Assembly: GCA_052034135.1 (NCBI GenBank)
Contig: JBPOJC010000013.1
Coordinates: 62,538 to 126,537, forward strand
Direction of reading: 5' to 3'
Source of the DNA: Caldisericota bacterium
GTDB taxonomy: Bacteria; Caldisericota; Caldisericia; UBA6126; JAGPKI01
Length of the DNA stretch: 64,000 nt
A program made the translations under genes and the position numbers. Below are positions 4,723 through 63,261 of this stretch, piece after piece (the stretch's first letter is position 1; each line of letters starts with the position of its first letter). A model generated the notes under the pieces. That model was not told the DNA's origin. It ran no database searches and worked only from the letters and a program-made list of their open reading frames with translations.

Positions 4723-6192
4723 ATGCTTAAAAGGGTAGGAAGTGTATTATTACTCATCTTTATCTTATGCTTCTCTATACAAGATATATTATCAATTGAT
4801 GTAGTATGCTATAAATATGACCTTAGTTTATCTGGATCGACTCCTGATATTATTCCTCCTCCAATTCAAACTATATGGAGGGAAACAGTTGGTGAAACAA
4901 AATCATATCCCATCATAATAGGAGATAAACTTTATATTGGGACAACATGGGCTTTAGTATGCTATAATGCAAAATGGGGAACAAAAATTTGGCAGTACAT
5001 TTCAAAAGATTTTTTGCATTCTTCACCTGCATATTATGCAGGTTATGTATATTGTGGACACCAAAACAATTTATACTGCATTAATGCAAAGACTGGCGTA
5101 CTAAAATGGAAGTTCGATACAGGAAATAATTCGGTTAATTCGTCCCCAATAGTTTTTTCAAATTCAGTAATATTTGCTGCTAATAATAGATTGTATGCTT
5201 TGAATTACGAAACTGGAAAAACATTATGGTCAATAGGATTTGCCGCAAATATAGAACTTCCTGTAGCAATCGTTTCTGACAAATTTTTTGTAATTTCAGG
5301 CGATAAAGTTTATGGTTTTAACTTTAAAACTCATACCAAAATCTGGGAATATCAATTTCCAGAAAAAATTACCCAGAGCTTATCTTCATCGAGTGAGAAT
5401 GTATATGTTTCATGTGGAAAAGAATTATATGCTATCGATTCAAGAACAGGAAAGTTAAATTGGAGACAATTCTTTACTGGAAAAGCTATGAACTCCCCAA
5501 CATATTTTGGAAATGATGTTTTTGCTTCCTTTGATCAATATTTGTATTGTCTTGATAATAAAAGCGGAAAAATTAAATGGCAATTTGAAGCAGGATATTA
5601 TATTGAATCAATACCATCTGTATCAGAAAAGTATGTTTGGATTGGTGCAGATGATTTTAATATTTACTGCGTTGATAGACTAAATGGTAAAAAGCTATTC
5701 GAATCTATTACGGGAAGTACGTCATATTATATAGTAATTGGAAACAACCAAATATTTTCACTATCAGTATACGGAGAGTTATTTGCCTTTATGCCTAAAC
5801 CTTCAACAGATCAAACTTACGTTAAATTTGAATTGTGGATAGGGAAAAAATACGCTCGTAAAAATGGTAAATTTTTAAATATTGATGCTCCACCATTTAT
5901 CGAAAATGGACGTACTTTAGTACCCATAAGAGTTATAGGAGAAGCTCTTGGAGCAACAGTAAACTGGTTCGCAGAAGATAAAAAGGTTACATATGCTCTC
6001 GGCACTAAATTTATTGAGCTTTGGATTGGGAACCCTATTGCTTACGTTTCTGGAAAGAAAGTCAAACTTGATACTCCGCCAAAAATAGTAAACAATAGAG
6101 CGTTTGTTCCATTGAGGTTTGTTTCAGAAAATTTATCTGCAAGAGTAAGTTGGGAACCTAACGAGAAGAGAATTACAATTGAGTATCCATAG
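4723..6192 (+). CDS. Secreted PQQ-like beta-propeller repeat protein with two C-terminal copper-amine-oxidase N-terminal-type (stalk) domains.
   Basis: There is a signal peptide. The body repeats W/Y..G-containing PQQ-like blades, and the C-terminus has two ~50-aa repeats (GRTLVPIRVIGEALGA...; NRAFVPLRFVSENLSA...). There is an RBS GGGAGG 7 nt upstream. Confidence 0.65.
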   Translation: MLKRVGSVLLLIFILCFSIQDILSIDVVCYKYDLSLSGSTPDIIPPPIQTIWRETVGETKSYPIIIGDKLYIGTTWALVCYNAKWGTKIWQYISKDFLHSSPAYYAGYVYCGHQNNLYCINAKTGVLKWKFDTGNNSVNSSPIVFSNSVIFAANNRLYALNYETGKTLWSIGFAANIELPVAIVSDKFFVISGDKVYGFNFKTHTKIWEYQFPEKITQSLSSSSENVYVSCGKELYAIDSRTGKLNWRQFFTGKAMNSPTYFGNDVFASFDQYLYCLDNKSGKIKWQFEAGYYIESIPSVSEKYVWIGADDFNIYCVDRLNGKKLFESITGSTSYYIVIGNNQIFSLSVYGELFAFMPKPSTDQTYVKFELWIGKKYARKNGKFLNIDAPPFIENGRTLVPIRVIGEALGATVNWFAEDKKVTYALGTKFIELWIGNPIAYVSGKKVKLDTPPKIVNNRAFVPLRFVSENLSARVSWEPNEKRITIEYP

Positions 6193-47839: not shown

Positions 47840-48244
47840 TTAACTTGTAAACTTTCTAAAAGCTGCAACTACAGCAACTTGAGGTAAGATTTTCCTGTCT
47901 TTTTCATCAATGTTTTTGATATCTATTCTATCAATTGCCTTCCTTAACTTTATTTGCCTTAAAGCCTCTCCCACTTTTGCAACATCTATTCCTCTAGGAC
48001 ACCTTGTCGTACAGGTAAAGCAAGAAGCACAAATCCAGAAAGTCTTAGTGTCTAAGACCTCTTCATCTCCAAGCTCAACGAGTCTCATCATATTTGATGG
48101 TGTAATGTCCATTTCAGCCACGAGCGGACAACTGCCTGAGCAGGTTCCGCATTGCTCACATAGTGTTACAACTTCACCGCTTATTTCGTTAACCTTTTCT
48201 ATAAATTCTACGTTTTTGTCAGATAATATGAGTTTATTGGACAT
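47840..48244 (-). CDS. hdrC: HdrC-like 2x[4Fe-4S] ferredoxin subunit.
   Basis: There are two CxxCxxCxxxCP motifs (CEQCGTCSGSCP and CASCFTCTTRCP) in a 134-aa protein. Confidence 0.8.
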   Translation of the reverse strand: MSNKLILSDKNVEFIEKVNEISGEVVTLCEQCGTCSGSCPLVAEMDITPSNMMRLVELGDEEVLDTKTFWICASCFTCTTRCPRGIDVAKVGEALRQIKLRKAIDRIDIKNIDEKDRKILPQVAVVAAFRKFTS

Positions 48245-48245
48245 A

Positions 48246-50645
48246 TTAAGCTCCTATTCTCTCTGTAAATAATTCTTTTTCTGCAATCTCCCAGAGTCTC
48301 TCTCTTTTCTCTGTTGAAATGGGTTCTTCCTTTTTTAAAAACTTTGTAAGCTCAGTAATGTGTTTATAAAAGTCAGTTAATAGTGAAGCAAGTAATTCAG
48401 CAAATTTTAATCTTTCTGGAGATATACCTTCTTTATTAAGAATTTCTTTTACGAGAGAAACATTTGTTTTAATTTTATCAACAGATCCAGTATAAGGAGA
48501 CGCACGATCATCGCATTCACCTATAAAAATACCATCAGCACCAGACTTAAAAGCATATAAAATTAGCTTCGGCGTTATTCTACTTCCGCTTGGAACTCGT
48601 ATAATTCTTGTTTCAGCTGGATAAGAGAGTCTCGCAGTCCCTATGTTATCAGCAAGTCTATAGGTGCAGGTATTATCTGCAAAAACAAGGATTCTTATTT
48701 CACCTTCTTTTTTTGTTCTTAAAGCTTCATCTATTTGTTCCATTAATTGTTTATTAGTGTAGTATCGAAGGTCTAAAGCATCTTTTGGGCAATCCGCTAT
48801 ACACATACCGCAGCCCTTACATATAACTTCATTAATTTTAGCTTTTCCATTTTCAATCGAAATAGCTTTAAGTGGACAGCTATTTATGCATAACCCGCAT
48901 CCATCGCAAATATCATCATAAACAAAAGCGATAATTGGTTCTATTTCAAATACACTTTTATTCATAAGCCTCATTGCTCTTGAAGCAGAAGCACTCCCCT
49001 GAGCAACTGAATCAGGGATATCTTTAGGACCTTGAGCGCATCCTGCGATAAAAACACCATCGATAAGAGTGTCAACTGGTCTGAATTTAGGGTGAGCCTC
49101 TTGTAAGAAACCATCTGCACTTCTTGCAAGTTTAAGAATATCTGCAATTTTTTCACTTCCACTTGATGGAACAATGCCGGTTGACAAAACTACAAGGTCA
49201 AATTCTCCCTCTATCATCTTTCTACTTAAAGTATCTTCTGAAAGCAGATAAAGCTTTTTGGTTAAAGGGTCTTCTCGAATTTCTGCAACTCTACCACGAA
49301 TAAACTTTATTCCTTCGTTCTGAGCTCTCTTATAATACTCCTCAAAGCCTTTTCCATATGCACGTAAGTCTGTATAGAAAATATAAATGTCTCTTGATGG
49401 ATCAAGCCTTTTAAGTAATTGAGCAAGCTTTGTTGCATACATACAGCAAATTCTTGAGCAATTTTCTCTATCTATCTGCTCATCTCTTGAACCAACACAT
49501 TGTATAAAAGCAATTCTTTTCCCGATTGGCTTAAGTGGAGGACCGGAAGAACCAGTTGCAATAATCCTCTCAAGCTGAAGTGCAGTTAAAACATTGGAAT
49601 ATTTCCCAAAGCCATAAACCGGCTTTTTTTCAGGGTCAAATAATTCATAGCCTGTTGCTGTAATGATTGTATCAACATTAAAACTTATTAGTTCTTCTTT
49701 ATCATCAAAGTTTATTGCTCCCTGCGTACATAACTTTTCACATATACCGCAAATTTTGCCACCCTTGACAAGTCTTTTACAGTTTTTCTCATCAATTAAA
49801 TACTTTCTTGGTACTGCAACAGGATTTTGAACATATACTGCTTTTCTCAAAGATAGCCCTTCATTAAATTCATCTGGCACTTTAACAGGACATTTTTCAG
49901 CGCATATGCCGCAGGCAACACATTTGTCCATATCAATGTATCTTGGTTTCTTTCTGACGGTTACAGTAAAATTACCAAGATAACCTGTAATACTTTCTAT
50001 CTCGGAATAAGTCATGAGCTTTATATTGGGGTGCTCTGCACAATCAGCCAGTTTGGGACCTATGATACATGTAGCACAATCCTCTGTTGGGAATGTTTTT
50101 GATAGCTTTGCCATCTTTCCGCCAATTGCAGGTTCTTTCTCAACAAGGTAAACTTCAAAACCAGAATCACCTAAATCAAGGCTTGCTTGAACTCCAGTAA
50201 TTCCTCCGCCTATAACTAAAACTCGTTTCCCTATTGGTAATTTCTGCCTTTCAAGAGGAATATCCGATCTTACTTTAGCTATTGCCATATTAACAAGGTC
50301 TATTGCTTTGCTTGTAGCTGCGCCTTTACTGAAATGGCACCAGGAACATTGCTCTCTAATATTTGCCATTTCAAAGGTGTATGCATTTAATCCAGCTTTT
50401 TCAACTGTTTTCATAAATGTTTTTTCGTGAAAAAGAGGTGAACATGACGCAACAACTATATGATCAAGATTTTGCTCTTTAATATCATCAATAATGTATT
50501 TTTGACCCTCTTCTGAACACATGTGTTCGTTGTCTCTGACAAACACAACACCTTCTTTATCTTTTACACTTTCTGCAACTTTTTTAACATCAACAATATC
50601 AGAAATATTTCCGCCACAATGGCAGATATAAACGCCAATTCGCAT
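48246..50645 (-). CDS. hdrA: HdrA-like flavoprotein fused to a C-terminal MvhD-like domain (candidate electron-bifurcating subunit).
   Basis: The N-terminal Cys cluster is VYICHCGGNI and the FAD motif is VLVIGGGITGVQASLDLGDSGFEVYLVEKEP. There are several ferredoxin-type CxxCxxCxxxCP motifs. The C-terminal ~140 aa match MvhD (ILVFADNTC...GADGIFIGEC). It is 799 aa. Confidence 0.85.
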   Translation of the reverse strand: MRIGVYICHCGGNISDIVDVKKVAESVKDKEGVVFVRDNEHMCSEEGQKYIIDDIKEQNLDHIVVASCSPLFHEKTFMKTVEKAGLNAYTFEMANIREQCSWCHFSKGAATSKAIDLVNMAIAKVRSDIPLERQKLPIGKRVLVIGGGITGVQASLDLGDSGFEVYLVEKEPAIGGKMAKLSKTFPTEDCATCIIGPKLADCAEHPNIKLMTYSEIESITGYLGNFTVTVRKKPRYIDMDKCVACGICAEKCPVKVPDEFNEGLSLRKAVYVQNPVAVPRKYLIDEKNCKRLVKGGKICGICEKLCTQGAINFDDKEELISFNVDTIITATGYELFDPEKKPVYGFGKYSNVLTALQLERIIATGSSGPPLKPIGKRIAFIQCVGSRDEQIDRENCSRICCMYATKLAQLLKRLDPSRDIYIFYTDLRAYGKGFEEYYKRAQNEGIKFIRGRVAEIREDPLTKKLYLLSEDTLSRKMIEGEFDLVVLSTGIVPSSGSEKIADILKLARSADGFLQEAHPKFRPVDTLIDGVFIAGCAQGPKDIPDSVAQGSASASRAMRLMNKSVFEIEPIIAFVYDDICDGCGLCINSCPLKAISIENGKAKINEVICKGCGMCIADCPKDALDLRYYTNKQLMEQIDEALRTKKEGEIRILVFADNTCTYRLADNIGTARLSYPAETRIIRVPSGSRITPKLILYAFKSGADGIFIGECDDRASPYTGSVDKIKTNVSLVKEILNKEGISPERLKFAELLASLLTDFYKHITELTKFLKKEEPISTEKRERLWEIAEKELFTERIGA

Positions 50646-51211
50646 TAAACTTCCTCCAAAATTTGATACTTTTTTACACCTTCAGCATATAAATCTCTAC
50701 CAGTCGTATCTATGCCAACAATTACAGGAAAATCTTCTACATAAAATTCCATAATTGCTTCGGCTCCAAGATCCTCATAAGCGATAAGTTTGGCACTTTT
50801 AATTGCTTGAGCTAACAGCGCTCCAGCCCCACCTATGGCAATAAAATAAATTGCTTTGTTTTTTATGATAGAATCTATGACTTCTTTTTTTCTCTCACCT
50901 TTTCCAATCATACCTTTTAGCCCATTATCAAGAAGAATTGAAGTATAGGGATCCATACGAGAACTTGTTGTTGGTCCCGCAGAACCAACTGCCATTCCTG
51001 GCTTCGCAGGCGAAGGACCAACATAGTAAATAACTTGATTTTTTATGTCAAATGGAAGAGGTTTGTTAGATTTTACAAGTTCTACAAGTCTTTTGTGGGC
51101 TGCATCTCTTGCTGAATATATTTTTCCACTAAGTAGCACTTTATCGCCAATTTTTAAATTAACGATTTCATCCTCCACTAAGGGAGTATTTAACTTGATT
51201 TCATTTCCCAT
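50645..51211 (-). CDS. fumB: Class I fumarate hydratase (Fe-S hydro-lyase), beta subunit.
   Basis: The fumarase/tartrate-dehydratase beta-type domain is present (GKIYSARDAAHKRL, YYVGPSP, GKGER). Confidence 0.8.
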   Translation of the reverse strand: MGNEIKLNTPLVEDEIVNLKIGDKVLLSGKIYSARDAAHKRLVELVKSNKPLPFDIKNQVIYYVGPSPAKPGMAVGSAGPTTSSRMDPYTSILLDNGLKGMIGKGERKKEVIDSIIKNKAIYFIAIGGAGALLAQAIKSAKLIAYEDLGAEAIMEFYVEDFPVIVGIDTTGRDLYAEGVKKYQILEEV

Positions 51212-51230
51212 CTTTATTTAACTTCCCTTC

Positions 51231-52076
51231 TTATATAATTGCACTTTTATGTCTTGCAGCATGACATTGAATATTTACAGCAACTGGCATGCTTGCTATA
51301 TGACAGGGAAAAGTTAATATATTCACTGCTAAAGCAGTTGTCCTACCGCCAAGGCCCATTGGACCAATACCTAAATTGTTTATTTTATTAAGTAGTTCTT
51401 CCTCTACTGCTTTCCATATAGGATCAGGATTATCTTCATCCAAAGGTCTTAAAAGAGCTTTTTTCGAAAGTATTGCACATTGTTCGAAGTCTCCACCAAT
51501 GCCTACTCCAACAATTATCGGTGGACATGGATTACCTCCGGCTCTTTTCACTCTATCAACAACAAATTTCTTGATACCTTCAATACCATCTGCTGCTGTC
51601 ATCATTTTTACTTCACTCATATTTTCTGAGCCGCCACCCTTAGGGGCAAAATCTATTTTTATTTTTTCACCTGGAACAATTGTGGTATGTATTATAGCAG
51701 GAGTATTGTCCTTTGTATTTTTACGCTCAATCACTGGATCATCAACTAATGATTTCCTTAAATATCCCTCAGTGTAACCGAGCCTAACTCCTTCATTTAT
51801 CGCACTATAAAAATCTCCACCAACAATGTGAACATCTTGTCCAAGTTCAATAAAAAATAGAGCTACTCCAGTATCCTGACACATAGGTATTTGTAATTCG
51901 CTAGCAAGTTCATCATTTTTAATAATTTGAGAAAGTATTTCTTTGCCAACAGGAGACTCTTCTTTTTCCATAAATTCTCTAAGTTTTTTCATTAGATCAT
52001 CGTTTACATAGTAATTTGCATCAATGCAAAGCTTTTTTATAACAGGAATAATTTGAGAAACATCTATCTCTCTCAA
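51231..52076 (-). CDS. fumA: Class I fumarate hydratase (Fe-S hydro-lyase), alpha subunit.
   Basis: It has MCQDTG near the N-terminus and the catalytic Cys ligands. It pairs with the beta subunit immediately downstream. Confidence 0.8.
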   Translation of the reverse strand: MREIDVSQIIPVIKKLCIDANYYVNDDLMKKLREFMEKEESPVGKEILSQIIKNDELASELQIPMCQDTGVALFFIELGQDVHIVGGDFYSAINEGVRLGYTEGYLRKSLVDDPVIERKNTKDNTPAIIHTTIVPGEKIKIDFAPKGGGSENMSEVKMMTAADGIEGIKKFVVDRVKRAGGNPCPPIIVGVGIGGDFEQCAILSKKALLRPLDEDNPDPIWKAVEEELLNKINNLGIGPMGLGGRTTALAVNILTFPCHIASMPVAVNIQCHAARHKSAII

Positions 52077-52088
52077 TTTAGCACCCCT

Positions 52089-52511
52089 TTATTGCTTATG
52101 TTTTTCAATTTCTTCTTTTTGCCACTCTATTGCAGCTTCACCTTTATAAAGATTACCAATTTCTTCTTCTAAATTTGAAACTTCAATTTTAAAAAGCCAC
52201 CCTTTTCCGTATGGATCTTGATTTGGAAAAGTCGGATCATCACTAATGTCTGGATTTACTTCTTTTATAGTTCCAGATAGAGGTGCGTAAATTTTACCGA
52301 CCCATTTACCGGTTTCGACTGTTCCAACAACATCGTCTGCACCTACTTCATCGCCTTCTACGGGCAATTCGATATATGAAATTTCACCTGCAAGTTTTTG
52401 ATAGAAATCTGTAACTCCTACTGTAGCAATGTTACCTTCAAGCTTTACCCACATATGCTCTTTATGATAATAAAGATCATCTGGTAGAAGATACCCTAAA
52501 ACATCACTCAT
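52089..52511 (-). CDS. gcvH: Glycine-cleavage-H-like lipoyl-carrier protein. It is the first gene of the Hdr/Frd operon.
   Basis: The GcvH fold motifs are H.W.K.EG, VG.TDFAQ-like GVTDFYQ, and the lipoyl-Lys box VETGK...IYAPLSGTI, which aligns to VESVKAASDLYAPVSG. Confidence 0.8.
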   Translation of the reverse strand: MSDVLGYLLPDDLYYHKEHMWVKLEGNIATVGVTDFYQKLAGEISYIELPVEGDEVGADDVVGTVETGKWVGKIYAPLSGTIKEVNPDISDDPTFPNQDPYGKGWLFKIEVSNLEEEIGNLYKGEAAIEWQKEEIEKHKQ

Positions 52512-52837: not shown

Positions 52838-53018
52838 GATTTACACTACTTCTCGGTAGCTTTTCTTAAATTAGGGATGGAGACTCCGATGAGGAGATTA
52901 AATTATATTACAATCAATAATGAAAACAAAGGAGATGGTGATTCCTATGGGCTAATTTTCTTTTAAAAATTTCATATAAAGCTTGTTTAAAGGTACTCAA
53001 AGAAAGGAGGAGATAAAA

Positions 53019-53789
53019 GTGAGCAATTTTTTCAAATTTAAGATGCCGAAAAGAAAAAGAAGTAATTTAATAATATTAAGTGGTAGAAAAAGTTTAGAGG
53101 CAGTTTGTTGTGGTAAATTCTGCAATCCTGTTGTTTCTATTTTATCATTGCCTGAAGAACATCCAGAAAAATGGGTTGTCATTGATATTGCTAATAAGTT
53201 AAATGATGCAAGAGTAGAATTATGTGAAACTGCAAAAAATGGAAATAGTGTTTGGAAGGCAACAACTGAAGCAGAAGTAAATCAAGCTGCAGCTCAAGTC
53301 AACAGTCATCTAACTAATTTTATTAACAATTTAAATGATGCAAATTCACTTATTAATAATTGGCATCAAGTTGCAGAAGCTAATAATTTGTTCAACACAA
53401 ATGATACAAATTTAAATGCTGCTGATTTAAATGAAGTAAAACAAAGTATGATAGATAATAATTTACCTATGGATCTTTTAAGTGGTTGCTGGGACAAAAC
53501 TGTTCAAATCTTAAATGAAGGAAATGGTACAGAAGTATTTCTTAACTTAGAACAAAATCTAATAAGTACCATTCACACACTTGCAAGTAATTTACAACAG
53601 CAATTTAATATTTTGATTGAGACTGAAATAAAATTTAGGCGTGATCAAATTACTCTCACAGATGTATGGAATACAAGATTTGGTATTATGAAAAGTTTTG
53701 ATTCCATATGGGCAAATCTTTCAGCATTTGATGGCTTTATGAAAGTTACTGAAGAGATGCAACGTATAGCAGCAGGATATGGAGGATGA
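53019..53789 (+). CDS. Hypothetical Asn/Gln-rich protein with an N-terminal CCGKFCNP Cys motif, ending in ...AAGYGG. It is a possible substrate/precursor of the downstream enzymes.
   Basis: The RBS AAAGGAGG is at 53004..53010 with an in-frame GTG at 53019. Alternative in-frame starts are ATG 52983 or ATG 53043. No family is recognised. Confidence 0.5.
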   Translation: MSNFFKFKMPKRKRSNLIILSGRKSLEAVCCGKFCNPVVSILSLPEEHPEKWVVIDIANKLNDARVELCETAKNGNSVWKATTEAEVNQAAAQVNSHLTNFINNLNDANSLINNWHQVAEANNLFNTNDTNLNAADLNEVKQSMIDNNLPMDLLSGCWDKTVQILNEGNGTEVFLNLEQNLISTIHTLASNLQQQFNILIETEIKFRRDQITLTDVWNTRFGIMKSFDSIWANLSAFDGFMKVTEEMQRIAAGYGG

Positions 53790-53855
53790 TAGCTAAATAT
53801 ATGAAAGGGAGGGTTTCTTATTATTTCTGTTTATAAGAATAGAAAGAAACTTTAA

Positions 53856-54554
53856 ATGCAGAGTAAAACTTCTCATTTTTATTTCTTTTATAATAAAGAC
53901 ACGTTAGCAGCCACTGAAATTAATATAATAGAGAAGAAAGAAGAAGAAGCTTTTGAATCCGTAAGTAACTTTCTGGCTATAGGATTCAACAAAAAGATTA
54001 GATTTAATCTTTTTTCATCTCCGATAGAAATTCTAAGAAGAACTGGGTTTCTATCTAATGGAATTGCTTACCCGGTAAGAAGAACAATTTATGCTGTTTA
54101 TTCAATAAAAGTTAAAGCTTTAGGAAAACATGAAATCACCCACATCTTAGCTTATAAAATCGGAAACCCTCCCTTGTTTTTACAAGAAGGTATTGCTGTG
54201 AGTTTAGACAAAAACTGGTTGAACAAGCCTTTATTTTCATATTTCGACAAAACTTTATGGACATATAAAAAACTAAGAATTGAACAGATATTTAAAGAAT
54301 TTAATTCTTTATTCCTAAATCCAAATAGAATAAAAGAGACTTCTAAAGATTTACTTTATCCTGTCTCTGGGTTATTTGTAGAATTCCTTATAAATGAGTT
54401 CGGAATTGAAAAGTTTAAGGATTTGTATCGCATTCTTTCTTTTAATGCTACTGCTGATGACTTTAAAGAAAATATTTGTAAAGTATATAATACCGATTTA
54501 AATGAAATAGAATTGAACTGGCTTGAAAACATGTCGCGAAGCAATGTTATTTGA
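53856..54554 (+). CDS. Putative zinc-dependent peptidase-like protein with an HEXXH motif.
   Basis: HEITH is followed ~20 aa later by FLQEG, which is a gluzincin-like HEXXH...E arrangement. It is 232 aa, and no specific family is assigned. Confidence 0.4.
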   Translation: MQSKTSHFYFFYNKDTLAATEINIIEKKEEEAFESVSNFLAIGFNKKIRFNLFSSPIEILRRTGFLSNGIAYPVRRTIYAVYSIKVKALGKHEITHILAYKIGNPPLFLQEGIAVSLDKNWLNKPLFSYFDKTLWTYKKLRIEQIFKEFNSLFLNPNRIKETSKDLLYPVSGLFVEFLINEFGIEKFKDLYRILSFNATADDFKENICKVYNTDLNEIELNWLENMSRSNVI

Positions 54555-54605
54555 TACTTAAGAAATTAACTATAGAAGGTAACTATAGAAGGTGGCAGTA
54601 ATAGG

Positions 54606-55844
54606 ATGGAAAAATTGTCTTCATTAAATAAACTTCTCAAAGTGGCAAAGAAAACAGATTTTTATAGATATTTGATTAATGAAATTCCTTCTTGTGATAA
54701 CAGCACAGAAATACTTGAAACCTTAGGTTTCTATACCACTAAAAGTGATTACAATTTGCATCTAAAACAGAGATTTGCTGATAATAATTTACAGTGGTTA
54801 GCAGTATCGACAGGCGGAACTACTGATATTCCGTCTATTGCTTTCATAACCGAAAAAGAAATAAAAATGGCAGCAGAATCCTTTGAAAATCTTTATTACA
54901 CTATTTTTAAAAAAAGCTTTAGGAAGAAAAAGGTTCTTTTAACAATTTCTTCTAACATAACTTTTCAATTAATTTCTACACTTTTAAAACTAAATGCAAA
55001 TGTTGCTTACTTGCCGCTTGAATTTGCTATTAATAATTATGCTCTTGTATTAAGCATAATAAATTTGCTTGGAATAGAAATATGGATTACATTGCCAATT
55101 CTTCCGTTTGAAATTGCTAAACAAATAGATCATTCCGAATACCAAAGAATGGATAGTATTTTATTATTAGCTGATTTAACGACTAATCGAATTAGAAATT
55201 TAATTAAAGAAAAATTTAGATGTGATATTGTAGCACAAGTATATGGAAGTGCAGAGCACTGCCTTATCGCAATGTCAGATGACAATGGTATATTCCACCC
55301 CTCAGATAACTCTATTTTAGAATTTTTAAAATTAGGTAAAAATATTGATTATTATGAATTAATACTAACAAATTTAACGAATTATAGTACTCCAATTATT
55401 AGATATAAAACTTCTGATGTTGTTAGAAGGATGCACGCCTTTAACGATGACCTTTTTTATACTTTTGAGATAGAGGGTAGGCTTGAAGAATGTTTCATTT
55501 CCTCTGATAACATAATCACACCACATCATATTTTATCCGTTGTTGATAGACTATTAACAAGTTTTTCGGTGATTTCATTAGTTATTGAAGGTAACATTGA
55601 TGAAATACAAGTCAAAGTAATTGTAAACACTAATAGTAGTAATATTAATTTTGATAGTCTCCATAAAAGATGTACAAGTTTATTCAAGAAAATTTTCGGT
55701 GAATATTCTAATGTTTTAGTAGATTTAGTTCCTACTAACTCGAGTAAAGGTAAAGAGGTTTTAAAAAGATTTAAACCACGCTATCTCTGGATAAAGCCAA
55801 AGAACATTAATAGATTTTGCATTAAACCTCCTGATGAAATTTAA
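54606..55844 (+). CDS. PaaK-like adenylate-forming enzyme (phenylacetate-CoA ligase / CapK / CoF390-synthetase family).
   Basis: It is colinear with the PaaK motifs. STGGTTDIPS matches SSGTTGKPT, YGSAE matches YGLSE, and ELILTNLTNYSTPIIRYKTSDV matches ELVFTSLTKEAMPVIRYRTRDL. An RBS AAGGTGG lies upstream. Confidence 0.75.
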   Translation: MEKLSSLNKLLKVAKKTDFYRYLINEIPSCDNSTEILETLGFYTTKSDYNLHLKQRFADNNLQWLAVSTGGTTDIPSIAFITEKEIKMAAESFENLYYTIFKKSFRKKKVLLTISSNITFQLISTLLKLNANVAYLPLEFAINNYALVLSIINLLGIEIWITLPILPFEIAKQIDHSEYQRMDSILLLADLTTNRIRNLIKEKFRCDIVAQVYGSAEHCLIAMSDDNGIFHPSDNSILEFLKLGKNIDYYELILTNLTNYSTPIIRYKTSDVVRRMHAFNDDLFYTFEIEGRLEECFISSDNIITPHHILSVVDRLLTSFSVISLVIEGNIDEIQVKVIVNTNSSNINFDSLHKRCTSLFKKIFGEYSNVLVDLVPTNSSKGKEVLKRFKPRYLWIKPKNINRFCIKPPDEI

Positions 55845-55853
55845 AGAAAAAAT

Positions 55854-56654
55854 ATGAAAGTAGGAATAATCCAAGGACCTTTTAAGCTTTCTTCAGCAAG
55901 AGAAAATTGGTGTACATTTGAAAATAATGTAGATTCTTTAGTACAACAAAAAGTCAATATGATTTGTATATGTGAAGAATTTTTGGGTAAACTCTCTTTT
56001 GTTATGGAGAAATGCTTAAAATTAGCGAAAACTTATAACATCTTTATAACTCCAGGCGTTTTAATTGAAAATTCTAAAGATTCGCTAAAGCCATATATCA
56101 TTTCAATTGTTATTGATCCAGAAGGCAGAATTTTAGTTAAACATAGAAAAGTATTTATGCCTCCACAAGATTCAGAATATTTCAATGCTGGGAATAGTTT
56201 TGATGACTGTATATTTGATTTTTTAGGAATAAGAAGTGCGATCTTAATTTGCGGAGACATAATTTCACCAATAGCACTTAGATATTTAAAGCAGAGATAC
56301 AACATTGAATTAGTAATACTTCTATTACGATTACCAGAAGATGAAAATTTTTTCATTCCACTCGTTAAAATACGTGCTGCTGAAAACAATGTGGCTATTC
56401 TTATAGTGAATGTATATGAAAAGAGTTTTCATGTCAAAATTGCTAGCCGATTGATCCTTCCAATAGAAAATGATATAGAAATATGTGAAAAAGATGGAAT
56501 AGGAACAATTTCAATTGATGTTGTTTCATTATCAGAAAGTTTACAATTAACTAAAGAAAATTTTCTTAGAAGTAAACAAAATTCTATAATAAAAGATATG
56601 ATATATAATGCTTTTGAGAATGAAAAACGTCTATTTAGCATTGTAAAAAAATGA
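55854..56654 (+). CDS. Nitrilase-superfamily carbon-nitrogen hydrolase.
   Basis: It has the C-N hydrolase E-K-C architecture. A Glu is near the N-terminus (CEEF), the RK..L box is KHRKVFMP, and the catalytic Cys context is AILICGD. Confidence 0.65.
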   Translation: MKVGIIQGPFKLSSARENWCTFENNVDSLVQQKVNMICICEEFLGKLSFVMEKCLKLAKTYNIFITPGVLIENSKDSLKPYIISIVIDPEGRILVKHRKVFMPPQDSEYFNAGNSFDDCIFDFLGIRSAILICGDIISPIALRYLKQRYNIELVILLLRLPEDENFFIPLVKIRAAENNVAILIVNVYEKSFHVKIASRLILPIENDIEICEKDGIGTISIDVVSLSESLQLTKENFLRSKQNSIIKDMIYNAFENEKRLFSIVKK

Positions 56655-57982
56655 ATTACGTTCTTTCTATGTATTCAATAATCAGCAAATTAGGTCTCAA
56701 AGACTCAATTGCAGTTTATAATGTATTTACTAAAGCACTTATCTTAGGGGGTAACATTTATAAAAGGGTTTTAAAACAGAATAACTTCATAAATACCCTG
56801 AAATACCCATTTTTAAAAGTAGAAGAAATAAAAAAATTGAATAATTTGGGAGTTATAGTTGACTCAAGTTTAGATGAAAAAAAGGTTACAAAAGAAAAAA
56901 TTCTAGAAGTCATTAAAGATTCAAGTAAGATTAACCTAACTTTGCTTTTAACACTTGACTGTAATATGGATTGTTCATATTGTTATGAAAAAGAAAATCG
57001 TAACAAAGCTTATATGGACTTATCAACTTGTAATAAAATTTTACAATACTTTGTTTATTTGCTTGATTACTCATCGTCTAAGAAAATATCAGTTACAATT
57101 TACGGAGGAGAGCCTCTGTTAAACATAGATGCAATAAAATATTTATTACCAAGAATAAAGCAATCTGCTATAAAGAAAAAAATAATTCTCAATGTAGATC
57201 TTATAACTAATGGAATCTTATTATCTTTAAATCTTCTTAATCAACTTAAACAATATGGATTGAATAGTGTGCAAATTACTTTAGATGGATGCGAAGAAGT
57301 CAACGACTCACGACGATATTTTAAGAACGGTAAAGGAACATTTAATAAAATATTTTCGAATCTTATAGAAACTGCAGACTGTTTACCTACAACACTTAGA
57401 ATTAATCTTGACAGTAATAATGTTGATAAGATTACGCGATTTTTAGACATTTTAAGGAAATTTGAACTTCACAGAAAAATAATTCTTCGTCCTGCATTTG
57501 TTTTTTCGCCCAAATATTCATGTAATAATCTTATAGAAAATACAAATAACTTGCTATTCTTTTGGAAGAAAGCATCAGAAAGAAATTTTATCATTCCTTT
57601 TGATCTATTTTCCCTACTTCCTGTTTGCTCAATCTACAAAAATTATGACTTAGTAATAGGACCCTTAGGAGAGATTTACAAATGTATTGGGTTTGCTGGT
57701 AATAAGAAGTTTATTATTGGTCATATAGATGAATTTAAACATCAAGTAGAAAATTATCCATTTAAACCTCAAAGTTTGATAATAAGAGATAAGTGTGTAA
57801 GCTGTAAGTATTGGCCATTGTGTCTGTCAGGATGTAGAATGTTAGCTTACATAAAATTTGGTTCTTTAGAATCTATCTATTGTCAAAAGGAATTTTTTGA
57901 TGCAATTTTTGAACATCTATTACCACTTTATATCTCTCAAAATTATGATGTAAATTTACAGAATTTTGCTTCTTCGAGCTAA
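56651..57982 (+). CDS. Radical SAM maturase with a C-terminal SPASM domain and a ~100-aa N-terminal extension that may be an RRE-like substrate-binding domain.
   Basis: A CX3CX2C motif (CNMDCSYC) follows a ~100-aa leader. GGEPLL is present, and the C-terminal SPASM motif is CVSCKYWPLCLSGC. It overlaps the hydrolase stop (ATGA). Confidence 0.8.
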   Translation: MNYVLSMYSIISKLGLKDSIAVYNVFTKALILGGNIYKRVLKQNNFINTLKYPFLKVEEIKKLNNLGVIVDSSLDEKKVTKEKILEVIKDSSKINLTLLLTLDCNMDCSYCYEKENRNKAYMDLSTCNKILQYFVYLLDYSSSKKISVTIYGGEPLLNIDAIKYLLPRIKQSAIKKKIILNVDLITNGILLSLNLLNQLKQYGLNSVQITLDGCEEVNDSRRYFKNGKGTFNKIFSNLIETADCLPTTLRINLDSNNVDKITRFLDILRKFELHRKIILRPAFVFSPKYSCNNLIENTNNLLFFWKKASERNFIIPFDLFSLLPVCSIYKNYDLVIGPLGEIYKCIGFAGNKKFIIGHIDEFKHQVENYPFKPQSLIIRDKCVSCKYWPLCLSGCRMLAYIKFGSLESIYCQKEFFDAIFEHLLPLYISQNYDVNLQNFASSS

Positions 57983-58011
57983 GAAGAAATAAATAAAAAT
58001 ATAAGGAGGAT

Positions 58012-58764
58012 GTGATGAATATGGAAGTATTGAATTTTTGGAATATTTTGCTTTTGATGGTTGCTTTTGGAATAGTTTTATGGGTATTAGCTAATTGGTT
58101 TAAGAAATGGGCTAATGTAGAAATAGGCAAGGAACCTAAAACAGGTGTGTATGAAATCTTTGATTGTTTAATCGCTGTTGGAGTTTGGTTTGCTGGAATG
58201 AAGTTATTACCAAAATTTGTAAAAAATTATGATATATTTACTCTTTTGTATCTTTTAATGACAGTTGTTATTATTGCAATTTTTACATTAGCAAGAAGAA
58301 GAAATTTCTCAGACATTGGTTTATCCAAAAAAAATATTAGAAAAATGTTAATCTTTACTATAATTATGTTTGGAGTAACTTTTGCTTATAATCTTTGTGC
58401 ATTGTATTTTAAAATTAGCCCTTATCCTATAAAAATAGAAATTATGTCATTAAAAACTGCATTAATTATTATTGGAATGGGCATTATTAATCCAGGGTTG
58501 ATTGAAGAACTCCTTTTTAGAGGTTTTGTTTTATCAAAGTTAGAGAGATTCTTGAACTGGAAATGGGCATTATTAATTTCTGCAGTTCTTTTTGGAATTA
58601 TTCATGTTGGACAGGGAATCTTTCCTATTATGGGCAGCATCTATTTAGGACTACTATTTGGTTATGTTTTCCATTGTGTTAGAAACATTATACCATTGGT
58701 AATTGGGCATGGTGTAGGGCTAACAACTGCTATTGTCGTTGCTAATTTGTTGAGAATTTTATAA
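58012..58764 (+). CDS. CPBP-family intramembrane metalloprotease (CAAX protease / Abi, bacteriocin-immunity-like).
   Basis: It has multiple TM segments. Motif 1 is EELLFRGF, motif 2 is FGIIH, and motif 3 is HCVRN (HxxxN). Confidence 0.8.
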   Translation: MMNMEVLNFWNILLLMVAFGIVLWVLANWFKKWANVEIGKEPKTGVYEIFDCLIAVGVWFAGMKLLPKFVKNYDIFTLLYLLMTVVIIAIFTLARRRNFSDIGLSKKNIRKMLIFTIIMFGVTFAYNLCALYFKISPYPIKIEIMSLKTALIIIGMGIINPGLIEELLFRGFVLSKLERFLNWKWALLISAVLFGIIHVGQGIFPIMGSIYLGLLFGYVFHCVRNIIPLVIGHGVGLTTAIVVANLLRIL

Positions 58765-58990
58765 AGTTTGAGGAAATAGGGTTTAATTTTTGTTTTTGGA
58801 ATTGGTATTTATCTTTCTCTGCTTTACTTTTATTCGAAAAGTATCTGGTCACCTTTTATATCTCATCTAATCATTAATTGTGTGAGCGGTTCGTGGGGTA
58901 AATCATTCCATCCAGAAAGACAGCGTTAGACTACGCGAATTATTTGCAGATTAAATGTTCTCCCATAAGGAAACAAGCATAATCATAATT

Positions 58991-59773
58991 TTAATAGTGT
59001 CCTAATAAACCTCTATCTTTGGCAATTTTCTCACAAAGCTTAAAAATATAAAAACCTAAGAAGAAGTAAAAAAGTGCTGTAATTATAAGGATAAAAATAT
59101 CATTAAAAGGCATATTAAAGATTGAGATTCCTTTGGTCATATTATCCCTGATTAGTTTTGTACCTAAAGAAAGTGGTAGAAATTTAAAAGCAAATATTTT
59201 ATCAACTGGTGCAGCAATAAAGCCAACAAATATGAATTGAAGTATTTGAAAGAGAGACTGGATTCTTTTGTAAATAAGCCCTAATCCGCCCATAATAAAT
59301 CCTATGCCATAAGCACCTGCAAGCGAAAGAACAAGAAGAGGAACAATTGTCAAAAGATCAAGGTGTAAAAATTTACCTGTTGTAATCATCATAAGGAAGA
59401 GAAATGGAACAGTCCAAAAAATATTCAGTATTAAATCTGATATAACAATAAATATAGAAATAGTACCAAAGCCGAATGGAGACATATAAAGCTGTTCTAA
59501 AGTACCAGTCTGTGCTTCTTCCATTAATCCCCATGATAATGTGCTATATCCACTTATTGCGTAAGTCCAAACAAAGAATCCTACAATAATACCCTCAATA
59601 GTATTTGAAAAAGTTGCAGATTGACTACCAATCATATACTTCGACCCAAAAAATATTGCTAAAAAGATTAAATAAATAGTTATTATTGAAGAGAAAAAAT
59701 TTAAAGGATATCTTAAAATTAGTTTAAGTCTTTTTATAAAAATCGTACTAAAAAGATTCCATTGATTTTTCAT
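58991..59773 (-). CDS. ABC-2 type transporter permease.
   Basis: It has six predicted TM helices and is 260 aa. Its start overlaps the ATPase gene stop. Confidence 0.7.
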   Translation of the reverse strand: MKNQWNLFSTIFIKRLKLILRYPLNFFSSIITIYLIFLAIFFGSKYMIGSQSATFSNTIEGIIVGFFVWTYAISGYSTLSWGLMEEAQTGTLEQLYMSPFGFGTISIFIVISDLILNIFWTVPFLFLMMITTGKFLHLDLLTIVPLLVLSLAGAYGIGFIMGGLGLIYKRIQSLFQILQFIFVGFIAAPVDKIFAFKFLPLSLGTKLIRDNMTKGISIFNMPFNDIFILIITALFYFFLGFYIFKLCEKIAKDRGLLGHY

Positions 59774-60705
59774 TTTTGCACAAGTTTTAAATATATATCT
59801 TCAAAGTCAGGTTCAATCCTCGTAATGCTTAGAAGTTTCACATTATTGTCCTTAAGAGTTTCAAGTAATTTATAAATAATCATAAAATCTTTCAATTCAA
59901 TAATTATTTCAGTTTTTGAACTGTTTTCTGTATATTTTGTTCCTAGTGAGATTTTTTGAAACTCTTCTTTTACCTTGTTGTCAATTCTACCGTCTATTTC
60001 AAACTTATAAGCATTCACTTTAAAAAAATCTTTAAGTGAATCTAACTTTTCATCTGCCACTATTTTTCCTTTATTAATTACTATTACCCTTTCGCAAACA
60101 TTTTCTATAACTCTCATATTGTGTGAACTGAGGAGAATGGTCCTTCCTTTATTTACCATTTCATTTTTTAAAAGGTTTTGAACTTCATGTGTTGATTCTA
60201 CATCAAGTCCGAGAGTTGGTTCATCGAGAAGAATTATTTCAGTATCTTTTATTAACGCTGATGCAATGGCAAGCTTTTGCTGCATACCTCGAGAGAGGAA
60301 GCGAGCTTCAGTGTTTGTCTTTTCTTTTAGTCCAAAAATATTGATTAGCTCATCTATTCTCTTTTTACAATTCTTATACGAGTAACCCATAAGACCTGCA
60401 AAGAATATAAGGTTTTCCTTTACTGTAAGTCTCCAGTAAATATTGCGATTACCCTCCAGAACACTTGAGATTTTTTTAAATGCAAAATATGGATTTTTTG
60501 TTACATTTATTCCGTCTATCCAAATTTTTCCTGATGATGAATTAATTAAACAACACAATGATTTAATTGTAGTCGTTTTCCCGGCACCATTTGGTCCTAA
60601 AAGACCTACAATTTCAGCATCATTAATACTAAATGAAATCTCATCTATTGCTCGAACTTCAGTTTTACCCTTGTAAATTTTAGTTAAATTCTCACATCTA
60701 ATCAT
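59770..60705 (-). CDS. ABC transporter ATP-binding protein (ABC-2 / lantibiotic-immunity-type ATPase).
   Basis: Walker A is GPNGAGKTT, the signature is LSRGMQQKL, and Walker B is ILLDEPT. Confidence 0.85.
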   Translation of the reverse strand: MIRCENLTKIYKGKTEVRAIDEISFSINDAEIVGLLGPNGAGKTTTIKSLCCLINSSSGKIWIDGINVTKNPYFAFKKISSVLEGNRNIYWRLTVKENLIFFAGLMGYSYKNCKKRIDELINIFGLKEKTNTEARFLSRGMQQKLAIASALIKDTEIILLDEPTLGLDVESTHEVQNLLKNEMVNKGRTILLSSHNMRVIENVCERVIVINKGKIVADEKLDSLKDFFKVNAYKFEIDGRIDNKVKEEFQKISLGTKYTENSSKTEIIIELKDFMIIYKLLETLKDNNVKLLSITRIEPDFEDIYLKLVQK

Positions 60706-60883: not shown

Positions 60884-60957
60884 GCGCCTGTAGCTCAGTT
60901 GGATAGAGCATCTGCCTTCTAAGCAGGTGGCCGTGGGTTCGAGTCCCGCCAGGCGCA
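60884..60957 (+). tRNA. tRNA-Arg (anticodon TCT).
   Basis: It folds into a cloverleaf by hand: acceptor GCGCCTG/CAGGCGC, D arm GCTC..GAGC, anticodon stem TCTGC/GCAGG with loop CTTCTAA, and T arm GTGGG-TTCGAGT-CCCGC. It is 74 nt. Confidence 0.85.
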
Positions 60958-61087: not shown

Positions 61088-61322
61088 TGAGTGAAGAATC
61101 TCCTTGCTTGCATTTTATTCTGGATTCCCGCTTTCGCGGGAATGACCCGCAAGGAGATCCTTCGGTCGCTTTTAGATACGCTCCTCAGGGTGACAGGAGT
61201 AGTGTCATTCTGAAGTGCGGTATTTTCGCACACGTACTGAGGTATCTCCTTATTTGTTTTTGTCATCCCCGAATTCCACGCAACTGTCATCCCCGAATGT
61301 CTTTATCGGGGATCCAGACTGT
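61088..61322. repeat. Copy 3 of the mosaic dispersed repeat family, inverted relative to copies 1 and 2.
   Basis: 61262..61320 is the reverse complement of 22325..22380. 61170..61250 is the reverse complement of the 9345..9510 module (cgctcctcagggtgacagg versus cctgtcaccctgaggagcg). Confidence 0.8.
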
Positions 61323-61359
61323 CTTGCTTCTTTCAAATGAGACAAAATCTCACTCATAA

Positions 61360-62370
61360 TTAATCAGTAGCTCCAAAACTTAACTTCAATTTTAAATTAT
61401 ATTCTTTATTTTTAATTTTCCTACTTTCTTTTGCTTTTAATATTTTATCCTCTCTTTCTTTTAATATTTCCTCTGGATTACCTCTATAGTAATCAACAGG
61501 TCTTAAGTAGTTAATACTTGAATGAAGCCTCTCATTGTTATAGTAGTCTACATATTTTGCAATTATTTGTTCTGCGTCAGTGAATGTAGCAGGATAATCT
61601 TTTCTTAAAGCTTCCTGCCTTAATAAACCATTCCACCTTTCTAATTTACCATTAGTTTCCGGGTGGTTTCTTCTTGTTCTAATGTCAATTAGGTAAGCCA
61701 ACGATATTACTTCTCTGAATTCTTTTGAGATAAATTGAGAGCCATTATCATGTATTATCTTTGGAGATATTTCTCTGTTTTTATCAAGGATTTCTTGAAT
61801 GAATAAACTTACGCTCTTTGAACTAATATCTGGTAATAACTTCCATCCTACTATATACCTCGAATAACCATCAAGGACAGCAATAAGAAATCCCCATATT
61901 TCACTCACTTTTATATACATTATGTCCGTATGCCAATGTTCGTTTACTTTAGTTGGTTTTTCTTTGTATTCCTTTTCTGCTCTTCCTTTGATGTTGCCCC
62001 ATCTATTAAGAAGATTATATTTTGTTAAGATTCCGTAAACTTGTTGGGGAGTTAAATAGACGATATCTTCATCTATCATCTGGTAAGTTAATTTCTTATA
62101 GCCAATTCCTGGATTTAATTTTGCATATCTTACTACAATATCTTCCTCTTCTTTTAATACCTTTATTAGGGTTTAACAAAAGGAATCTTAGGGGTTTCTT
62201 TTCCTTTTAACCATCTATAATAGGTAGCTCTGCCTTATTACAAAGCTTTTCTAATATCCACTCCAACTTAAAGCCAGTAAGTTCTTTCATTCTTTTAACT
62301 TCTTCTTTTATTATTTCTTTAAGTTCTTTATCCTTAACATTGTGTCCTATAATTCCCCAAGATTTTTTTT
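61360..62370 (-). pseudogene. IS3-family transposase OrfB (rve/DDE integrase core). The N-terminal part appears frameshifted.
   Basis: The intact ORF 61360..62079 carries the DDE core (WHTDIMYI..., HDNGSQF, NGKLERWN). Between ~62185 and ~62225 all three frames contain stops. The -1 frame out of the A9 site ends at ...PIIDG*, while the conserved OrfB N-terminal box (RYAKLNPGIGYKKLTYQM) is in another frame. Joining them would need two indels. Confidence 0.5.
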
Positions 62371-62667
62371 TAAAATAAGGTTCTCTTCTGCCAGAGTTGC
62401 AATTACATTCTTCATTCTATCAATTTCAGCTTCTTTTAACTTTTCTTTTCTACTTCTCTTATTAATACCATTCTTAAATGATTCATAAGCTCCTTCCAAG
62501 AATTTCTTCTGCCAGGTATAGTATTGCCTTGTATCAATATTATACTTTTTACATACTTCTGATACAGGTACTTTACCAACTAATACCTCTTTTACAATTT
62601 CAAACTTCTTCTCAGGACTAAAATGCCTCCTGTTAGATCCATTAACATTTTTTGGTTCTACAACCAT
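62347..62667 (-). CDS. IS3-family transposase OrfA (HTH plus leucine zipper).
   Basis: It is 106 aa. The HTH is VSEVCKKYNIDTRQYYTW, and L-x6 heptads occur near the C-terminus. An RBS AAGGAGGA lies upstream. Confidence 0.8.
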   Translation of the reverse strand: MVVEPKNVNGSNRRHFSPEKKFEIVKEVLVGKVPVSEVCKKYNIDTRQYYTWQKKFLEGAYESFKNGINKRSRKEKLKEAEIDRMKNVIATLAEENLILKKNLGEL

Positions 62668-62869
62668 TTTTAAAGTATCCTCCTTTTAATGTTATTTTAA
62701 GGATACCACTAATTAATTTATGATTAAAGTGTTGTCTCATTTTGTTTATAACTTGACAAGACCAATGTTTTTGTTTTATAAGTATTATAAGATAGGTGAT
62801 CTTTACGAGCAAAATACAGATACGCTTCTTAAGGATAACGATGAGTGACTTGAGACTCCTTCATCGACG

Positions 62870-63035
62870 GAAATAGTGCTCCTCAGGGTGACAGAAGGGC
62901 TGTTATTCCCGAAATCAATTATAAGGAAATTCAGTATTTTTTGTAAAAAAAGACATTTTTGCCTGTTCTTTTCTATTCTCATATGGCAGAATTCTAGTTC
63001 ATTTCTCCATCCTCAAGTGTCTTTATCGGAAATTC
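62870..63035. repeat. Copy 4 (degenerate) of the mosaic dispersed repeat family, on the other side of the IS.
   Basis: gctcctcagggtgacag and gtgtctttatcgg are shared with 61180..61320 in the same orientation. Confidence 0.6.
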
Positions 63036-63261
63036 AATATTCTTTAATTAATTACTACTTTTTGAATTTTTGTCTTCATGGAAATTACATATTGTATATG
63101 TATTCCTACTTCTTCAGTATAACTTAAAGGATTTCATTGAGAATAAAACATAGTAGAACATAGTTTTTGTTACTACTTTCTCGGTATTTATTATGAACCT
63201 TTAAAAAGTAGTAGAATTGATCTTTAGTTAAAAATAAAAATTTATCAATATATAATTTAAT

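Follow-up and report, generated by a model that had tools for sequence, protein, structure and literature searches.

Does a run of tightly packed genes in a Caldisericia genome encode a machinery for modifying a peptide or protein, and which of the neighbouring genes belong to it? We addressed this question in a 64,000-nucleotide (nt) stretch of DNA from a Caldisericota bacterium (assembly GCA_052034135.1, contig JBPOJC010000013.1, positions 62,538 to 126,537; the whole stretch is called the window below). A preliminary description of this DNA had proposed a cluster resembling those for bacteriocins or for peptides that are made on ribosomes and modified after translation (RiPPs), with a radical S-adenosylmethionine (rSAM) enzyme of the SPASM type and a transporter as its exporter. 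The maturase and protease parts of that proposal held up, whereas the exporter part did not. We read the remaining six open reading frames (ORFs), ORF1 to ORF6, as a cassette that constitutes an accessory, strain-specific RiPP-type peptide- or protein-modification operon, and we give this reading a probability of about 0.5. The cassette is composed as follows (aa, amino acids):

52943..58861: cassette ORF1-ORF6, ~5.9 kb, GC content 0.286, delimited by blastn and MAFFT comparison of the related contig L093 with the window
53019..53789, + strand: ORF1, 256 aa, orphan protein and candidate substrate
53856..54554, + strand: ORF2, 232 aa, cytoplasmic HEXXH protein, putative gluzincin-type peptidase
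54606..55844, + strand: ORF3, 412 aa, probable, very divergent PaaK/F390-synthetase-type adenylate-forming enzyme
55854..56654, + strand: ORF4, 266 aa, nitrilase-superfamily (C-N hydrolase) protein
56651..57982, + strand: ORF5, 443 aa, radical-SAM/SPASM peptide maturase with a predicted N-terminal domain of the RiPP precursor recognition element (RRE) type
58015..58764, + strand: ORF6, 249 aa, CPBP (Rce1-like) intramembrane glutamic protease

The eight ORFs listed earlier for this region are all present, six on the + strand and a convergent pair opposite. The tight, co-directional packing of the six was verified in the sequence: they are separated by 66, 51, 9, -4 and ~30 nt, the negative value being a 4-nt overlap between ORF4 and ORF5 (56651-56654). 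The most likely start of ORF1 is GTG 53019, which is preceded by an AGGAGG site, while a start at 52983 is disfavoured; for ORF6, gene calls on identical contigs make ATG 58015 the most likely start. Scans for Rfam families, terminators, promoters and repeats returned nothing relevant within the cassette, and thus no terminator-like site or RNA family inside the operon. Directly upstream of the ORF3 start, at 54569-54594, lies a perfect tandem duplication of AACTATAGAAGGT, which includes the likely ribosome-binding site.

The biosynthetic unit consists of these six genes (~52943-58861), because a single gene replaces them in related contigs. Collinearity between L093 and the window extends to 52942 (87.5% identity) and resumes at 58984 (92%), while a weaker match begins at ~58862; between these edges L093 carries a 2.1-kb segment encoding one 401-aa membrane-anchored protein in place of ORF1-ORF6. 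The same arrangement occurs in L094-L097 and L101-L103, a 393-aa gene occupies the position in L100, and further independent contigs show the order ABC (ATP-binding cassette) ATPase, permease and 401-aa gene, followed by gcvH where the contig reaches it. The edges of the cassette coincide with the six genes, and its GC content differs from that of the left flank (0.286 vs 0.35). When proteins are clustered at 90% identity, the flanking ones (FumB, an HdrA-like protein and the ABC-2 permease) fall into clusters of 19-69 members, shared with proteins named 'Caldisericia bacterium', and ORF1-ORF5 into clusters of 1-4 members, all from identical contigs; identical copies of the cassette were found in several independent metagenomes. 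The six genes are one insertion or replacement unit, and this unit is strain-specific. The alternative 401-aa protein shows no relation to ORF2; it and its 393-aa counterpart in L100 have a weak Ig-like (Big_1) match and a 'HETTE...GDGLAEYA' motif.

The convergent pair facing the six genes (58991-60705), correctly placed in the preliminary description, lies outside this unit:

58991..59773, - strand: ORF7, ABC-2-type permease, backbone neighbour outside the cassette
59770..60705, - strand: ORF8, DrrA-like ABC ATPase, backbone neighbour outside the cassette

ORF8 scores 105 bits with the ABC_tran model and 232 bits with a DrrA-like one. ORF7 is multi-spanning, with several hydrophobic segments; it has no match in Pfam or NCBIfam, and the source databases name members of its 90% cluster (35 members, from several Caldisericia metagenome-assembled genomes) ABC-2 permease. 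The pair had been proposed as the exporter of the cluster, but it is kept at ~92% identity in Caldisericia contigs that lack ORF1-ORF6 (L093-L103), where it adjoins the unrelated 401-aa gene. Because it is present in strains without the cassette, we regard it as conserved backbone and not as a dedicated exporter. The variant contig L004 matches the window at 100% identity in the stretch of the cassette that it covers (from 55054) and in most of the permease gene, whereas its ABC ATPase gene differs by 84 nt and 19 aa and the spacer to the following tRNA has diverged too, which suggests a recombination edge near 59.7 kb.

What might such a unit do? ORF5 is an rSAM/SPASM enzyme, and its residues ~1-90 are predicted to form an RRE-type domain. 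It matches Radical_SAM (PF04055) with 56.7 bits (cutoff 29.5) and Fer4_12 with 44.9 bits. Residues 301-443 match the SPASM model TIGR04085 with 47.1 bits against a cutoff of 27; the Pfam SPASM model PF13186 gave no match on ORF5. In an alignment of 40 sequences the CX3CX2C motif (C104/C108/C111) and the GGEP motif are invariant, as are C326, G340, C345, C385, C391, C395 and C411 of the SPASM region, while 90% or more of the aligned sequences share C382. The SPASM assignment, including its Cys spacing, therefore passes profile matching. The best NCBIfam matches are all rSAM/SPASM peptide maturases: CefB (220 bits, with an alignment spanning positions 32-435 of the 444 in the model), geopeptide (209), FlmE/OhkG (155), TIGR04463 (155) and PapB (134), followed by Clo7bot (132), SCIFF (98) and QhpD (95). 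By these scores ORF5 is a relative of the thioether-forming maturases of Cys-containing peptides.

Predicted structure points in the same direction. An AlphaFold2 (AF2) model of ORF5, built on the 40-sequence alignment, has a mean confidence (pLDDT) of 87.1 and places a beta-beta-beta-alpha-alpha-alpha domain, with strands at residues 3-33, before the TIM-barrel core. In Foldseek searches the model aligns over its full length with the RRE-containing enzymes CteB (E 4.5e-21, 457 columns) and TigE; by sequence, too, CteB ranks first among solved structures (3e-20). Residues 1-95 searched alone gave no sequence-profile match to RRE models. The earlier suggestion that the ~100 residues before CX3CX2C are RRE-like is thus borne out by full-length superposition of a predicted structure on CteB and TigE. 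We also considered, and rejected, a housekeeping role as an anaerobic sulfatase-maturating enzyme (anSME), because the best matches and the structure all point to RiPP maturases and the anSME score is low: ORF5 reaches 73 bits with TIGR03942 (cutoff 349) against 220 bits with CefB. The RRE-less anSME aligns with the model over ~378 columns, ORF5 being ~90 residues longer at the N-terminus with its extra domain, and a Pfam profile search of the cassette proteins found no sulfatase.

The genomic surroundings of related enzymes provide a second line of evidence. The nearest rSAM protein is 32% identical to ORF5. The closest relatives are found at loci of the classical peptide-modification type, together with short peptides that bear Cys, with peptidases and with ABC transporters. 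We compared 80 genome and 5 metagenome loci with related rSAM genes, using phmmer and jackhmmer with all eight window proteins. Around the nearest rSAM relatives the gene orders are these:

L007: a 133-aa protein, then an HEXXH protein, then two rSAM enzymes
L009: a DUF4932 protein, a 33-aa ORF ending 13 nt before the rSAM gene, then an ABC ATPase and an ABC-2 permease
L104/L105: SAM synthetase, rSAM enzyme, two Cys-rich peptides of 64-93 aa, an ABC transporter and an S41 peptidase
L106: a 37-aa peptide upstream of the rSAM gene

The candidate substrates beside these relatives carry Cys motifs, often with Pro, such as 'SCPTLCC' in L009 and 'ECCKAGAP' in L106, and the first gene of L007 (133 aa) has 'LCRCPNK' near residue 30. 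Several of them are likely to be precursors that are unannotated or poorly annotated at present: the 33-aa MRVRVLEKGAEGPAAAVSCPTLCCIIVGRRNTW (L009:3703-3804) and the 37-aa MEENESIMVLDEGVNEEIEELRECCKAGAPVRFKPAE (L106:2224-2337). The Cys-rich peptides at L104:3302-3727, which end in CWAQVCTTAKVDPF, likely form a precursor family.

If ORF5 modifies a ribosomal product, where is its substrate? The two candidates within the cassette are these:

53106..53123, + strand: Cys cluster C30-C31-G-K-F-C35 in the ORF1 N-terminus, proposed rSAM cross-linking site by sequence and analogy
53801..53836, + strand: tiny ORF in the ORF1-ORF2 gap, 11 aa (MKGRVSYYFCL), or 16 aa if it starts at 53786, a weak alternative precursor

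ORF1 is the sole non-enzyme gene of the cassette. Its AF2 model (pLDDT 62.6) shows a disordered N-terminal stretch of ~48 aa followed by a long four-helix bundle; there is no transmembrane segment, and the C-terminus is GYGG. Of its five cysteines, three lie close together within the disordered stretch, at residues 30, 31 and 35 (CCGKFC). Searches of 5.8 billion clusters found no ORF1 homologue besides itself, and fold searches returned generic or designed helical bundles only, with weak and non-significant matches to alpha-pore-forming toxins. By analogy with the substrates of related enzymes, the disordered N-terminus is the best, though unproven, candidate substrate, and we treat it as a lead. 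The terminal GYGG might recall a double-glycine or ubiquitin-like activation site, an idea that finds no support because nothing follows the motif and no E1-like enzyme is present.

A RiPP-type system could also act on a substrate other than ORF1, either the tiny ORF of 11-16 aa (MIAKYMKGRVSYYFCL) or a peptide whose gene lies at another place in the genome, and ORF1 would then be a helical-bundle protein with an accessory, regulatory, immunity or effector role. Short peptides of 33-93 aa do adjoin ORF5 relatives; ORF1, largely a generic four-helix bundle, greatly exceeds the usual length of precursors; and the 66-nt gap does contain a small ORF with a Cys. This ORF is the only intergenic small one on the operon strand, but it is too short for an RRE leader plus a core, its ribosome-binding site is poorly spaced, and it lacks comparative support. 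Moreover, one would expect a mobile cassette that is self-contained to bring its own substrate, and the first-position gene of L007 likewise has an N-terminal Cys motif. On balance, we consider a substrate other than ORF1 unlikely.

Two further genes look like proteases. ORF2 reads H92-E-I-T-H96 ... Q-E111-G and is homologous to the HEXXH protein L007:2853-3911, whose gene lies immediately upstream of those for the closest rSAM relatives (blastp 2e-7, jackhmmer 2e-15); among the ~85 loci, ORF2-like proteins occur at L007 and L008 only. As judged from these matches, ORF2 thus belongs to a family of HEXXH proteins whose genes are found before the closest rSAM relatives as well, and because the L007 protein beside the rSAM genes is its homologue, the HEXXH-rSAM module recurs. 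A scan of metagenomes with an alignment of the two HEXXH sequences gave no match. The earlier call of an HEXXH protein therefore holds for the HEITH and downstream QEG motifs, whereas the peptidase profile is reached only below threshold; we regard ORF2 as a putative leader or follower peptidase. ORF6 was rightly called a CPBP protein: it matches PF02517 (Rce1-like/CPBP) with 61.4 bits, far above the cutoff of 22.4, has multiple transmembrane-like segments and carries the three signature motifs (EELLFR, FGIIH and HCVRN for EExxxR, FxxxH and HxxxN). Its best NCBIfam match is to fused ABC-permease/CPBP proteins, and it is putatively an immunity or processing protein.

The remaining two genes set the cassette apart. 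ORF3 has no Pfam match. Its NCBIfam scores (45.7 bits, 4e-12, with the DVU_1553 family, cutoff 300; 26.5 bits, 2e-6, with PaaK, cutoff 646) lie so far under the cutoffs that it is not a PaaK orthologue. Against PaaK structures in the PDB it reaches E ~0.02, and in an alignment to PDB 4r1l the motifs STGGTTDIPS, YGSAE and IRYKTSD are recognisable (core S/T-G-G-T-T, YGxxE and IRYxTxD). Only ORF3 itself was found among 5.8 billion clusters. A full HMMER search of 1.84 billion representatives gave a best non-self E value of 3.5e-10 (protein P0124), and the remote matches are all of the PaaK/F390/FlxY/BagE type; P0124 is encoded in a capsule/glycosyltransferase cluster beside a CapK-like gene. ORF3 is thus probably an extremely divergent adenylate-forming enzyme, assignable at the superfamily level. 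The label of PaaK-like ligase given to it earlier fits the PaaK-type motifs and the weak profile matches, but Pfam gives no match and no score comes anywhere near a cutoff. For ORF4 the nitrilase-family call is confirmed by PF00795 (CN_hydrolase; 31.3 bits, cutoff 23.2). K98 and C133 align with the catalytic Lys and Cys of formamidase AmiF (PDB 2dyu), the triad Glu (E41/E42) was assigned by eye, and a second Glu after the Cys motif is apparently absent. A tblastn search of plasmids with ORF4 returned just two distant C-N hydrolases. As read from their sequences, ORF3, ORF4 and ORF6 all retain the catalytic motifs of an adenylate-forming enzyme, a nitrilase-superfamily enzyme and a CPBP protease, respectively.

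Small molecules are the normal substrates of PaaK-type ligases and nitrilase-superfamily enzymes, and this raises the alternative of a small-molecule or cofactor pathway, in which ORF3 would serve to activate an organic acid, ORF4 to hydrolyse an amide or nitrile and ORF5 to carry out a radical step on a non-peptide. SPASM/twitch enzymes with non-peptide substrates are known (BtrN, AhbD/NirJ, GDGT-MAS), ORF5 itself gives weak matches to NirJ/AhbC models, and remote ORF3 relatives occur in polysaccharide clusters. Such a pathway would, however, leave the predicted RRE-type domain of ORF5, the two proteases of the operon and the Cys-rich peptides beside related rSAM genes without a place, and peptide maturase models match ORF5 about four times better than non-peptide SPASM families do. 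We regard it as improbable.

The gcvH-to-permease segment differs among Caldisericia strains (window 52943-58861 vs L093:10784-13333; also L094-L097 and L100-L103), and in L100 the 393-aa gene is followed by HicAB and an HTH_Tnp_1 fragment where the others have gcvH. The left-flank block (47840-52511) encodes GcvH, class-I fumarate hydratase alpha and beta, a 799-aa HdrA-like flavoprotein/Fe-S protein and a small Fe-S partner, and is collinear and kept in the Caldisericia contigs L093 and L097. On the other side, the convergent gap between ORF6 and the permease gene contains a conserved element of ~90 nt (58862-58954), of which L093 holds two tandem partial copies (L093rc 5231-5324 and 5322-5378). 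Just past the ABC ATPase gene lies a tRNA-Arg(TCT) at 60884-60957. The independent metagenome contigs L001, L002 and L004 all end inside it, at 60919, and L001 has its start, at 52901, close to the edge of the cassette; both positions are therefore branch points in the assembly graphs. Further on, an IS3-family element (61335-62742) is bounded by 25-nt terminal inverted repeats (61335-61359 and 62718-62742) and encodes an HTH_Tnp_1 orfA (62347-62667) and an rve-domain orfB (61360-62079); a sequence resembling the end of an insertion sequence adjoins the variable segment in L093. On either side of the IS3 element lie two ~80% identical copies of a repeat (61180-61316 and 62878-63036), and spurious ORFs over the left copy read 'IPAFAGMT' and 'RGNDPQGD', typical of palindromic repeat elements.

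In such a setting the cassette could instead be an anti-phage defence or conflict cassette, or a recently acquired one in decay, that has landed in a variable hot spot and resembles a RiPP operon incidentally. Strain specificity, low GC, the IS3 element and tRNA near the variable segment, HicAB near this position in another strain and the extreme orphan status of ORF1 and ORF3 would all fit, and CPBP proteins have historically been called 'Abi' proteins. PADLOC, however, found no defence-system match, only generic matches to the rSAM enzyme and the ATPase; the ORFs are all intact with their catalytic motifs, and identical copies occur in several independent metagenomes. This explanation appears very improbable to us.

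In the RiPP-type reading that we prefer, ORF5 would bind a ribosomal substrate through its RRE, most likely the disordered N-terminus of ORF1, and would put one or more Cys-derived thioether cross-links at CCGKFC, by analogy with CteB and PapB. ORF3 would turn a carboxylate into an acyl-adenylate for an amide or ester bond, in the manner of the PaaK-like ligases DdaG and BagE. ORF4 would make or break a C-N bond via Cys133: it could uncover a carboxylate by acting as an amidase or deamidase, or it could supply ammonia. The roles of ORF3 and ORF4 are suggested by superfamily chemistry only. ORF2 and/or ORF6 would cut the modified segment from its leader or from the helical-bundle follower, or ORF6 may alternatively confer self-immunity, and export, if any, would proceed by non-dedicated machinery. 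One can go further and see here a new RiPP-like class, with an N-terminal core on a 256-aa precursor, the four-helix bundle as follower, carrier or effector, and PaaK-type plus nitrilase tailoring after thioether formation. This tailoring, a kind of step that RiPPs have not shown so far, would consist of adenylation-dependent amide or macrolactam formation, acylation or amidation; we hold the new class to be doubtful.

Several observations weigh against a RiPP-type operon. ORF1 is 256 aa long, mostly a generic four-helix bundle and without a homologue, and its likeness to other candidate substrates consists of a shared short Cys motif only. No canonical short precursor gene was found at the locus in a small-ORF scan, in agreement with what had been noted before. 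ORF5 stays under the cutoff of every named family (CefB 220 of 600 bits, geopeptide 209 of 400, PapB 134 of 340, SCIFF 98 of 425, QhpD 95 of 453), so that the type of bond it makes is a guess, and ORF2 reaches 24.3 bits with Peptidase_MA_2 (PF13485), under the cutoff of 32.4. At the ~85 related-rSAM loci there is no homologue of ORF1, ORF3, ORF4, ORF6 or ORF7, that is, no ligase, nitrilase or CPBP protein. A literature search found no RiPP locus combining an rSAM enzyme with PaaK-like and nitrilase-type proteins, and we could find no RiPP precedent for ORF3 and ORF4. Finally, all copies of the cassette are identical and offer no variation from which purifying selection or co-evolution could be gauged; the cassette may be recently acquired and non-functional.

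The PaaK-like/nitrilase/rSAM trio is unique to this cassette in current data, which speaks neither for nor against function. The preliminary description had held that genes never co-localised in other genomes would argue against a cluster; the trio is indeed seen nowhere else, because the cassette is a singleton and for that reason only. Its view that the ligase and nitrilase pair falls outside the standard RiPP toolkit agrees with the literature searched, where no such system is described. The claim of an undescribed type rests on a singleton.

As judged from its gene content, the locus is a plausible variant of an rSAM RiPP cluster, and its value is that of a lead and not of a finding. Genome mining very commonly turns up orphan rSAM/SPASM clusters. 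If functional, this one would add to radical-SAM RiPP biosynthesis a tailoring pair of adenylating enzyme and C-N hydrolase as well as a protein-sized substrate with an N-terminal core. It would also be a natural-product-type locus from Caldisericia, a lineage seen in these searches only as metagenome-assembled genomes and metagenome contigs. It further illustrates that a strain-specific cassette landing beside a conserved ABC transporter can mimic a complete bacteriocin locus.

How does the cassette compare with known systems? As in bacteriocin loci with CPBP/Abi immunity proteins and ABC transporters, a CPBP gene ends the operon and adjoins an ABC-2 pair; unlike there, the pair is kept in strains without the cassette, and the pairing is positional and not dedicated. 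With the PaaK-type ligases (DdaG of dapdiamide biosynthesis, BagE/FevW, CapK and F390 synthetase) ORF3 shares the adenylate-forming motifs, and its remote homologues match models of this kind, but identity is <30% and no model cutoff is approached. To our knowledge, none of these ligases is known in an rSAM peptide cluster. In quinohemoprotein amine dehydrogenase maturation, the rSAM/SPASM enzyme QhpD introduces thioether cross-links into a protein-sized substrate, QhpC, at a locus with a protease and a transporter. The QhpD profile matches ORF5 (95 bits), but far under its cutoff of 453, the cassette has no dehydrogenase subunits, and ORF1 is unrelated to QhpC.

The CefB (Cys-every-fifth) and geopeptide rSAM maturases are closer: their profiles score highest and align over nearly the whole of ORF5, although under the cutoffs of 600 and 400, and the cassette has neither a Cys-every-fifth nor a geopeptide-type precursor. 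Both families were defined in silico in NCBIfam and, as far as we know, are experimentally uncharacterised. In comparison with systems of the CteB/PapB type, the cassette has no short Cys-rich precursor beside the enzyme, adds adenylating and nitrilase-type enzymes, and offers a candidate substrate of 256 aa whose Cys motif is N-terminal and not C-terminal. It resembles them in that ORF5 relatives are paired with Cys-containing peptides and in that ORF5, with its predicted RRE, rSAM core and SPASM domain, has the same three-part architecture as CteB/SCIFF, PapB and the sactipeptide maturases.

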